Of a DNA stretch of 46,931 bases, positions 36,001 through 39,000 are shown in pieces (position 1 is the first letter of the stretch; the number at the start of each line of letters is the position of its first letter). A program made the position numbers. Origin of the DNA: a virus (taxonomy: Duplodnaviria > Heunggongvirae > Uroviricota > Caudoviricetes); the IMG/VR virus record IMGVR_UViG_2522572023_000008; one strand, written 5' to 3'.

Positions 36001-39000
36001 GCTTTACCATCCGTTTCCGCTATGGATGCGGCTTTCGGCTCTGCCGGTAAATCAGCGCCCGGTATGCAGTACCGAAATTTACCGCCCTGATTCACGCGAA
36101 TCAGACGCCCTTTGCTGATTGCCATGGCCAGTGATGAATTCGCCCGGCGGGAGGTAATCCCGAACATCAGTGCCAGCTCATCCGCCGTTTGTGGGCCATG
36201 ATGTTCAATCGCCTCAGTCAGCATTTGCGCTGTCACTTTCGGTACCGGTGACACTGGTTCACTTTCACCAGCCTGAATCAGCCACCACATCGAACCCTTG
36301 TTATCCGCTTCACCACGGCGCTTCAGTTTCCACAGTTCGTTGACAGCATCTTCGCGGCTGATTCCAAGGCGCGATGCCACTACCTGTGAAGAGGCTTTTT
36401 TCAGTGCTTTCAGTGCGTCAAATACAGTTTCCATTAAAACGTCCTCCAACAAAAATTACTTCACAACCCTCTGATTGCTGACATTTGGACGCCAGCTATC
36501 CCAGTTAAACGTCACCCACCGACCACCGTTCATGGTCATGCGGTCCATAATCCTCTCACCAAGAAGCGTGCTCATTGCGGCATGATTCAGGTTTGTTAAC
36601 ATCCCGACACTGCACAGTGATGCTGTCCGGCGATCAATTATCTGGTGTAATACCACCTGCTCGTTTTTCGTCTCCCGCTGAACGCCTATTTCATCCAGGA
36701 CCAGCAAATCAACACTGCAAAGCTCCTGTAAAAATTTTTCCCCGGATTTGCCGTTGTCGTAGCTGTCATGCAACACGCTCATGACATCAGACACGGTGAC
36801 GATAATCACGCTGCGCCCCTTCGCCATCAGCCGGTTACCCATCGCCGCTGCAAGGTGATTTTTCCCGGTGCCGGTTTTACCGCTGAACACAAAATTCGTG
36901 CACCCGGTCATCAGTTCGTCAGCTATGGATTTGGCCTGGCTCAGCGCGTATTTTTGCCCGTCGTTCTGCACCTGATAATTCGCAAACGAGCATTTGCTGT
37001 GCAGAGGCTGGATGCCCGAACGATTCAGGATTTTTTCCACCCGCAACTGGTGATTCTGGCGGTTAATCTCCTCGCTGCGTTTTCGTCCTTCAGCAAGTTG
37101 CCATTCCCGCCACTCCTCCACCGTCCGGTACGGTGGAACCGACGCCGGTGGTGCAAGTCTGCGAATACGTTCAAGAACCCCGGCTGCCGCAATGTTTTTC
37201 ATGCCACATCACCCCCTGAATCCCGGCGGAATTTCGGTATCCGGTTCAGAAATATGATTCACACAACGCTGGTTGTTCGTGCCGCTTACCGGGAGCAACC
37301 AGGGGTTTTCAAAATTCCGGTCCGGCCCAAAAAACGTCGTCGCTCGCTGAACAAATTCCGTTCCCGCTTTCCCGGTCGCCGCCAGGTATCTCGCGTAACG
37401 CCTCACACCATCCAGCATGGTCTCTGGTGGCACCCCCTCGCGCAATCTGGCCTTCCAGGCACTGAATGCGGATTTCTTCGGGTTTGCTCCGGCACGCAAC
37501 GGGTACTCCCGCCAGACCTGTTCGAACACATCCGGATAATCCACTCGTCCCACAGACAGCCCGGTGTTTTCCGGGACTACCCGATCGGCTTCCCGCTGAA
37601 TGGCGGAATCGGCTTCAGGCTGCTGCAGTTGGTGTGATTGCTTCGGCCTTGCGGTCATCACCTGCTGCACAGCGCCCGAATCGGCTTTCAGCGCATACGC
37701 TGAATCGGCTTCCGGTGTCGTGCCTGCTGGCTGACCAGGATTGACGGTCTGAACATCCCCTGCCTGGTTCGTGGCGTTTTTTACGCCATGGACCATAGTG
37801 TTTTGATCTTCTTGATCTGTATCTTTATCTGTATCTTTATCTGTATCTTTATCTGTATCTTTATCTGTATCTTTATCTGTCGTGACTCGTCGTGACATGT
37901 GCATGACATTTCGTGACGCGCCGTGACAATCGCCATTTTGTTCCCGCTTTCTTTCCCTCTCTCGCTGCGCCCTCTTGCGCTCTGCAGGAGATTTTGCGGT
38001 TTGCGAAATATTGCCGTTGTCCTCTTTAAGCACCTGGCGTTTTTCCCATCCAGTGATTAAATCACCATCAAGTACCCGCCCCTGCATCGTCTGCAAAATT
38101 GAATCAATTACCTCTTCTGTCACGTCGAGCGCACTTGCCAAATCTTCTGTCGTGACATCAATGTGACCTCGCGTGACATTTCGTGACGCGCTCACCAGGA
38201 GGTGGATATACACTGCCATCACTGTTGCAATTGGCTGCCCTGACACCCTGGCAATTGTTCGCCACTTAGGGTCATTTGGCATGTCATGCCATAATCTGAG
38301 CCAGGCGTTAGCCATACTCACCTCCTCTGATACCGAATCTTTTTACTCACGAATTGCCGGAAGCGATTCGATATGGCTATTGTCAGTCAATGTACTGCCA
38401 CAGCATTTCCTGCCGGGCCACCACGGTTCATCTGATTGAAACCGGCGATTGCCACTGCGACAAAATCATCAGCGTCTCTCACCAGTCGCTCCCGCGTCTC
38501 CACCAGCTCCCGAAAATAAGTTGAACTGTGGCTGCGCATTCTGGCCACCAGCAAAGGTGGCATTGCCTTTTCGATCGCTGGTAACAACGCCTGAATTTTT
38601 TCAACTGCATCAGGGGTGTCTTTCTCTATCCAGCGGAAAATTTTCTGGGTATTGCGAGCCAGGGCTTCCGGATGGCTGTCGTCATACAGTTCCGGGAACG
38701 TCATACCCAGTTCGAAATACGCTTTGGTAATCTTCGCAGTCGGTACTTTTTCGCCGTCCGGATGCGCCCAGGCATTCATCGCCATGCGGATGTGTTCATG
38801 CTTGATTTTCATGAATCCCCCCTTGGTTAGAAGGCGGATTATGATCAGAATCGGGAATGACAACCGTCGGTATGTGTAACTCATATTTGAGCGCCCCGGC
38901 AGTGACTGCCTGAATTAGCAACGCCCATTTCCACGGAACGTCTTCCCCCCACATGCTGACTGTGGTTTTTGACGTTCCTAGAGCGGCGGCTGTTTTAACA

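Follow-up and report, generated by a model that had tools for sequence, protein, structure and literature searches.

Some replication origins of phages and plasmids lie inside the gene of their own initiator protein. In lambda, iterons and an AT-rich tract occupy the middle of gene O (PMC7466680). The lambda iterons are inverted repeats of about 18-19 base pairs (bp), gathered in one cluster and bound by one O dimer each, and O amber mutants can still be complemented in trans when the AT tract carries in-frame deletions of 12 or 15 bp (PMC6022878). The oriL of phage SPP1 lies within gene 38 and consists of direct repeats together with an unwinding element that is AT-rich; G38P binds the repeats and acts with a separate loader, G39P, and a helicase (PMC6316719). 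In plasmid pSK41, the Rep boxes are central in rep, the linker encoded by the origin is dispensable, and the initiator has a DnaD-like fold and modular domains (PMC5703833). Here we describe a comparable locus in the IMG/VR record IMGVR_UViG_2522572023_000008 (Caudoviricetes), a stretch of 46,931 nucleotides (nt) hereafter called the window. The gene for a predicted initiator (37209-38315, minus strand) contains two phased arrays of the hexamer GTCACG (CGTGAC on the plus strand) and, beside one of them, an AT-rich tandem repeat. We assign a probability of roughly 0.78 to the reading that this region is the vegetative replication origin of a lambdoid prophage, located within the gene of its own initiator. 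By analogy, its layout is best read as an origin of the lambda, SPP1 or RepA_N style with bipartite iterons. An earlier note on this DNA had proposed an origin inside the initiator gene, and this placement is strongly supported, though not proven, by the comparative evidence given below.

Array L (37881-37927, minus strand) carries five hexamers and encodes CHGASRNVMHMSRRVT in a disordered linker of the protein. On the plus strand, perfect CGTGAC copies are found at 37881, 37891, 37912 and 37922 and a degenerate CATGAC at 37902, with spacings of 10, 11, 10 and 10 bp. Array N (38119-38187, minus strand) carries four direct GTCACG-type hexamers and an inverted one, and its product is the loop ASRNVTRGHIDVT...DVT in the winged-helix domain at the N-terminus; on the plus strand, CGTGAC occurs at 38151, 38172 and 38182, a degenerate TGTGAC at 38162, and the inverted copy at 38119. 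The phasing of 10-11 bp puts the hexamers on one helical face. Both clusters noticed earlier, one following the tandem repeat with motifs 10-11 bp apart and one further along, are thus present, the first with five hexamers including the degenerate one. The distance of about 260 bp given for them is replaced by a measured register of 270 bp, that is 90 codons in the same frame, and the 18-bp block reported as common to both is real but 21 nt long (37901-37921 and 38171-38191, 95% identical). The sequence TCTGTCGTGAC is also present at 37876 and 38146. Eight of the 33 perfect CGTGAC sites in the window fall within 312 bp, where 0.17 would be expected (Poisson ~1e-11), and, apart from the tandem repeat, CGTGAC is the sole hexamer in the window that reaches four copies within 50 bp. 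The third iteron of array L is a rare allele (CATGAC, 37902-37907) that changes Thr to Met in the protein; five perfect array L copies were found in 106 of 115 related viral contigs.

Array L directly abuts (37880/37881) the AT-rich tandem repeat, (GATAAAGATACA)5.9 on the coding strand (37810-37880, minus strand), which encodes (TDKD)n, is variable in number and is a candidate DNA-unwinding element. Tandem Repeats Finder gave a period of 12, 5.9 copies and 98% matches; the five perfect 12-bp copies noted earlier are present as ATCTTTATCTGT units that extend to 37880 and encode TDKDTDKD... on the minus strand. The block has a GC content of 0.27 and a strong AT skew. It is the least stable 60-mer of the replication operon (-64.9 vs -87.4 +/- 5.2 kcal/mol, a difference of 4.3 standard deviations) and the third least stable of the whole window. 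A comparison of copy number between related prophages, suggested as a check in the earlier note, revealed that the 12-bp unit is polymorphic. The 115 related viral contigs had 1.5 to 5.5 copies with a mode of 2.5 (1.5 copies in 23 contigs, 2 in 2, 2.5 in 77, 3 in 2, 3.5 in 8, 4.5 in 2 and 5.5 in 1), and the window, with 5.5 copies by this counting method, is at the top of the range. The O145 strain RM10425 (L007) has the CATGAC mutation in common with the window but 3.5 instead of 5.5 copies, and therefore the repeat length changed recently within one lineage. The idea of a length-variable coding repeat between the initiator domains was supported as well, since the (TDKD)n block lies in the inter-domain linker.

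Translation of the arrays and a codon comparison indicate that the hexamers are selected as DNA. The coding-strand motif GTCACG occupies every reading frame within a single array: nnG TCA CGn gives Ser-Arg, GTC ACG gives Val-Thr and nGT CAC Gnn gives Cys/Gly-His. Codons within the hexamers are fixed (GTC 44/44, ACG 44/44, GGT 22/22, CAC 22/22 and TCA 21/22) among 22 homologous genes whose genomes range from 33 to 69% GC, whereas the Arg codon between two hexamers varies freely among CGA, CGC, CGT and CGG. Because of the three reading frames and the frozen synonymous sites, these comparisons identify the hexamers as DNA-level elements under selection, and an explanation as a peptide repeat was rejected.

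The arrays are kept across a large family. The Pseudomonas phages P7869 and phi1, the Aeromonas phage pAEv1818 and about 25 beta- and gamma-proteobacterial genome loci carry homologues of the N-domain at 60-70% identity; the hosts include E. albertii, Serratia, Rahnella, Aquitalea, Bordetella, Acidovorax, Chromobacterium, Pseudothauera and one Entomomonas of 33% GC. In the E. coli, Pseudomonas and Aeromonas phages and these loci, the arrays keep their positions at gene nt ~129-160 and ~387-430. The hexamers of array N begin at gene nt ~129, 139, 149 and 160 and the inverted copy lies near 192 in the phages of Pseudomonas and Aeromonas as well as in the ~25 loci, and GTCACG is nearly absent from the 4-kb flanks of the relatives' genes. 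In more diverged subfamilies GTCACG is missing, and both places are taken, with unchanged phasing, by a different hexamer: GTAACG, CGAACG/GAACGC, GCAACG (Ralstonia phage Hennie) or GTGACG. The array N loop accepts insertions that bring further iterons: some E. coli alleles have 21 bp inserted and thereby gain hexamers in phase, and other members host insertions of more than 20 amino acids there.

Prophage alleles of the O157:H7 type (L005:1501-2592 and L006:1501-2616) combine the C-domain and the DnaC-like loader found in the window with an unrelated N-domain (MRDYAKVSPRFWLGE...). The gene for this unrelated N-domain carries AAGGGGCT at nt 185 and 196 and again at nt 441, 452 and 463, with 11-bp phasing, and the second set is followed by (GAACAG)n, which encodes an EQEQEQ linker. 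This N-domain family is of the same bipartite design with another motif. The iteron layout had been described as unusual; it is indeed bipartite, but this is a family-wide trait, found also with an unrelated N-domain, and no oddity of this prophage.

The AT-rich block is likewise widespread. The coding strand of 50 family loci shows a 60-70 fold enrichment of AGATA at gene nt 360-480, immediately behind array L (3.27 per block vs 0.17 in composition-matched shuffles), and, irrespective of iteron type, C-domain type and host GC, array L is followed by an (AGATAM)n block. In 26 loci of at least 54% GC (54-69%), the linker prefers codons ending in A or T relative to the rest of the gene: GAT for Asp (84% vs 41%), AAA for Lys (77% vs 38%) and ACA for Thr (64% vs 14%). 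Two GATC (Dam) sites, 37805 and 37814, lie at the distal edge of the block in the window, and GATC occurs in or adjoining the block in several gamma-proteobacterial relatives (e.g. L009, L017, L024, L032, L037 and L048); these sites may connect to methylation or SeqA control. A resemblance of the repeat to the DnaA-trio or the oriC 13-mer was considered; the match is poor or doubtful, and we make no claim of it.

The likely start codon of the initiator is the ATG at 38315, which has a Shine-Dalgarno sequence (GGAGGTGA) and coincides with the RefSeq start. It gives a protein of 368 amino acids; the length of 370 stated before arises from a GTG at 38321. RefSeq labels this protein (WP_025380444.1) 'hypothetical protein' and its close homologues 'phage replisome organizer', while PHROG 3729 'replication initiation protein' matches with an E-value of 1e-252 and no Pfam family reached its cutoff. 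Beyond PHROG 3729, replisome-organizer and DnaD-like families match the two halves of the protein: PHROGs 4880 and 5968 'replisome organizer' cover residues 6-175 (E 7e-9 and 6e-7; no Pfam match at E <= 0.01), and PHROG 1701 'DnaD-like helicase loader', the sole DnaD-like annotation of the C-domain, covers residues 151-370. Starting at the N-terminus, the protein has a winged helix, then a basic helix, next a disordered linker, and at the C-terminus a loader-interaction domain. Residues 1-149 were modelled with AlphaFold2; the model is confident for residues 1-95 (38031-38315, minus strand), the presumed iteron reader, and depicts a helical bundle ending in a winged helix that is closest to the N-terminal domain of DnaD (DnaD-NTD) and RepA_N. 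Array N encodes a loop between two helices (residues 43-55), and the residues encoded by array L (128-143) have a predicted local distance difference test (pLDDT) score <50. According to the model, both arrays are placed where the protein tolerates constraint. As the putative origin overlaps the coding sequence, its elements lie in tolerant parts of the protein, with array N in a surface loop of the winged-helix domain and the other two, array L and the AT block, in the disordered linker that joins the domains, a location that allows the AT block to expand or contract in steps of 6 or 12 bp.

The N- and C-domains exchange independently, with the recombination junction exactly at the linker. 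The same N-domain and iterons occur with a C-domain annotated as DnaT-like single-stranded DNA-binding and a lambda-P-like loader (L003 and L004), while in phages of Pseudomonas, Aeromonas and Ralstonia their partners are DnaB-type helicases or a primase-helicase; in O157:H7, it is the C-domain and the DnaC-like loader that stay together beside a different N-domain. The type of C-domain co-varies with the loader, be it DnaC-like, lambda-P-like, a DnaB-type helicase or a primase-helicase. The alignment of C-domain homologues was shallow and rich in frameshifted products. Frameshifted or partial products are frequent among the database entries for the gene family (P0035, P0133 and P0149-P0155), which suggests that the copies in E. 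coli prophages often become pseudogenes or are misassembled around the repeats.

The last 24 residues of the initiator, GTNNQRCVNHISEPDTEIPPGFRG (37212-37283, minus strand; tail segment SEPDTEIPPGFRG), resemble the C-terminus of host DnaT. DnaT is a structure-specific protein that works in replication restart and is not a sequence-specific origin binder. It is encoded in one operon with dnaC and is proposed to recruit DnaB/DnaC (PMC13377028). A phmmer search of PDB matched the tail to DnaT chains 6aep, 2ru8 and 9zbt (E 0.02-0.07), and the NCBIfam DnaT model gave E 0.0017 and 18 bits against a cutoff of 201, with just residues 347-370 aligned. The last 22-24 residues (SEPDxxIPPGFRG) thus match DnaT, and the order of the host dnaT-dnaC genes is mirrored here by a DnaT-like-tailed protein followed by a DnaC-like ATPase; the tail is the only part that matches DnaT. 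The tail probably contacts the helicase/loader machinery, as its sequence suggests, and it may be a short linear motif for helicase or loader recruitment.

In comparison with ori-lambda, the candidate origin likewise lies mid initiator gene, with the iterons followed by the AT-rich unwinding tract along the direction of transcription. The AT-rich tract adjoins the iterons inside the gene and encodes an inter-domain linker that tolerates in-frame length change, as in lambda and in the origins of the Stx phages P27 and 933W. The locus belongs to an early lambdoid operon, downstream of cro and cII, and by analogy with lambda origin binding would fall to the N-domain, and the C-domain would bring in the helicase loader, the product of the next gene. 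Unlike lambda, it has an asymmetric 6-bp core repeated head-to-tail at one-turn spacing instead of an 18-19-bp palindrome, two arrays 270 bp apart, one of them within the coding region of the DNA-binding domain, and a DnaC-like partner instead of P. Homology to lambda O was rejected, as the protein belongs to a different fold class and gave no Phage_rep_O match at E <= 0.01. The description of the initiator as O-like in the earlier note therefore holds as an analogy in layout and not for the protein, whose winged helix is of the DnaD-NTD/RepA_N kind.

RepA_N initiators share with the modelled N-domain an N-terminal winged helix of DnaD-NTD-like fold. They are, however, proteins of Firmicutes plasmids, whereas the present family is found in proteobacterial phages and the initiator gave no RepA_N Pfam match here, and they have a single central set of four Rep boxes where this gene has two arrays. 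We know of no second array reported in the N-domain coding sequence of RepA_N genes, nor of an (AGATAM)n block in them. In sequence, the likeness to SPP1 was judged by PHROG matches, the 'replisome organizer' families of PHROG weakly matching the N-domain. The second set of sites in SPP1, oriR, is ~13 kb away and not 270 bp away in the same gene, and SPP1 encodes its own helicase. A sequence-specific (AGATAM)n block following the iterons distinguishes this locus from the lambda, SPP1 and RepA_N cases. In more general terms, phased repeats under DNA-level selection lie inside the coding sequence of an initiator in this gene as in those systems. The replication units Eru1-3 of EHEC phages (SF2 helicase/Toprim, O-like + DnaB and DnaB-type; PMC8044961) do not fit the DnaC-type module. 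A text search of the paper on Eru4-10 (PMC8951638) brought up none of DnaC, IstB, DnaT or iterons, and origins are the subject of neither Eru paper. Our literature searches, which covered GTCACG/CGTGAC iterons, replisome-organizer origins of proteobacterial phages and DnaT-like phage initiators, returned nothing on this family and no description of its origin.

If the region is an origin, a pathway of four steps can be proposed. Upon derepression, the early rightward-type operon of cro, the cII/ydaT-like gene, the initiator gene and the dnaC-like gene would be transcribed through the origin, as in lambda, by read-through from a cro-proximal promoter. The N-terminal winged helix would then bind the asymmetric GTCACG sites, five in array L and four direct and one inverted in array N. 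A head-to-tail oligomer, possibly bridging the arrays 270 bp apart, would distort the DNA and melt the (GATAAAGATACA)n block. Finally, the exchangeable C-domain with its DnaT-like tail would deliver host DnaB, via the phage DnaC-like loader, onto the opened strands. Array N may be part of the origin core or a control site.

Several points weigh against the origin reading. All its support is comparative, and binding, unwinding and initiation are predicted functions. Iterons and N-domain co-vary in part automatically, since the former are contained in the coding DNA of the latter. Of the two peptide patterns of the genome scan, one (RGH..VT.ED) overlaps array N, which skews recovery to loci keeping that peptide, although not to particular codons. 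Array N, whose role is putative, has no adjacent strongly AT-rich tract. The presumed recognition helix (residues 67-77) is acidic, and DnaD-NTD is mainly an oligomerisation module, so that the DNA may be read by this helix or by another surface. AGATA is in a single reading frame in 157 of 169 cases, and some selection on the DK/DT peptide may therefore be involved. The cumulative GC skew declines evenly through the region, shows no inflection where the candidate origin lies, and is uninformative. Finally, this copy of the origin may be impaired, because one iteron is mutated (CATGAC) and the integrase is frameshifted.

The best surviving alternative, which we regard as unlikely, is that the hexamers bind the initiator but mainly serve control, as a transcriptional roadblock or by autorepression inside the gene, by handcuffing or by titration, with initiation elsewhere; in a milder form, array L is the origin and array N is purely regulatory. 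Iteron plasmids are known to employ extra iterons for control, array N lies ~130 bp into the gene away from any strongly AT-rich neighbour, and arrays 270 bp apart could form a loop. However, array L abuts the weakest duplex of the operon, and regulation alone hardly accounts for the conserved (AGATAM)n block. Moreover, no other iteron cluster was found in the 46.9-kb window or in the relatives' flanks, and the lambda, SPP1 and RepA_N precedents put the origin at exactly this position in the gene.

A second alternative is that a different protein binds the arrays, such as a host factor, the cII/YdaT-like protein or the DUF1627 protein. The identity of the binder is not directly evident here, and the overlap would cause iterons and N-domain to be inherited together in any case. 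This alternative is nevertheless improbable, since the arrays stay with the N-domain while all the neighbours change (other upstream genes and other loaders in Pseudomonas, Aeromonas and Ralstonia phages and in the lambda-P-type modules of E. coli), and the identity of the hexamer shifts between subfamilies in the same host groups, which speaks against a conserved host factor. A third alternative, that the motifs have no cis function and merely reflect a conserved peptide (ASRNVT...) and slippage during replication of a low-complexity linker, is hardly credible. In its favour, the arrays encode some of the best-conserved segments of the protein alignment, they share a frame across 270 bp, and the DK/DT repeats are read mostly in one frame, but this explanation is already largely refuted by the reading of the hexamer in three frames within one array and by synonymous sites that are frozen inside the hexamers across 33-69% GC while their neighbours vary, and the 10/11-bp phasing kept through hexamer-adding insertions and the same layout with another motif, AAGGGGCT, in an unrelated N-domain family also oppose it.

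The origin reading can be extended, in a form that is possible but doubtful, to a large unrecognised class of origins defined by a loop array, a linker array and a conserved (AGATAM)n block, the block being conserved across subfamilies whatever the iteron or loader type. In its boldest form, (AGATAM)n would not be merely AT-rich but may, like the DnaA-trio, be an element that a conserved part of the initiator recognises specifically as single strand or duplex, and the loop encoded by array N may help to recognise the hexamer, so that the same nucleotides would encode both site and reader. If this were true, origin specificity could switch in cassette fashion.

The gene for the initiator, at >=80% of its length, is present in 1647 of 5426 complete E. 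coli genomes (~30%), and the module is also found in prophages and phages of many Proteobacteria; the comparisons thus support extending the interpretation from one prophage to a large family. A map of the origin, with its two hexamer arrays, unwinding repeat and possible palindrome, would enable replication typing of prophages that lack lambda O, including effector-carrying ones of pathogenic E. coli such as this one with nleB2, and would account for the recombination of origin specificities and helicase-loader modules at the linker. The hexamers GTCACG, GTAACG, CGAACG, GCAACG and GTGACG form a natural series of iteron/initiator specificities, useful for studying the recognition of a 6-bp site, and the opening of DNA, by a winged-helix initiator. 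The copy number of the unwinding element could tune origin strength. The gene is a clear example of dual coding, in which cis elements occupy tolerant loops and linkers of the protein they serve.

The window is identical to part of the chromosome of E. coli O145:H28 RM12761, where it forms a lambdoid prophage adjoining tRNA-Ser and mtfA. It carries the type III effector gene nleB2 at the tail-fibre end (1-981), tRNA-Arg and tRNA-Ile genes placed within the late regulatory region (29127-29379), and an integrase gene (44873-45923). No stx gene is annotated in the window. The annotation marks the integrase as frameshifted, and excision of the element may therefore be impossible even if its origin fires.

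The early operon runs on the minus strand. A P22-Cro-like gene (38796-39038; Pfam P22_Cro) and a cII/YdaT-like gene (38387-38812; Pfam YdaT_toxin and PHROG 163 CII-like activator) precede the initiator ('phage replisome organizer') gene. Directly downstream lies the gene for a DnaC-like AAA+ helicase loader (36456-37202), which matches NCBIfam PRK12377 (E 1.5e-153), Pfam IstB_IS21 and PHROG 50 'DnaC-like helicase loader', as well as the DnaC equivalog at E 4.6e-89, under the cutoff of that model. A DUF1627 gene (35718-36452) also belongs to this operon. The cI-like repressor gene (39130-39768) is divergent from it; the open reading frame encodes a full 212 amino acids with helix-turn-helix and S24 peptidase domains, of which RefSeq marks just the C-terminal 112 (39430-39768) as 'LexA family protein', probably an annotation truncation. 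A promoter-like site is located upstream of cro (39096-39067, minus strand) and another within array L (37903-37930, plus strand, 9/12 match); counts in the promoter and terminator scan were at shuffle level. An Rfam scan of 36400-39400 gave a single chance-level match, and no known RNA in it accounts for the region.

Beyond the AT block lies an imperfect palindrome (37765-37795) with a 13-pair stem and a 5-nt loop (T5). Its DNA fold has an energy of -10.9 kcal/mol (z = -5.1), it is terminator-like on the plus strand, and weaker hairpins occupy the equivalent place beside other C-domain types. A role as a universal third element was not upheld, the enrichment of hairpins after the AT block in relatives being modest (13 of 49 loci vs ~5 expected), although the palindrome is suggestive of a possible third origin element, with weak to moderate support. 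Hairpins with a CTCACTACGTTCGG-like loop ~20-60 bp past the AT block were seen in L015, L029, L055, L059 and L023, loci that span different genera and iteron types, suggesting a shared downstream element or the shared start of one C-domain type. Further into the gene, between the linker and the C-domain, GAATCGGCTT, which may be a DNA site or a peptide repeat, occurs three times in one frame (37606, 37678 and 37702) and encodes the peptide EADSA, and relatives differ by a 24-bp indel in this region (37606-37711).

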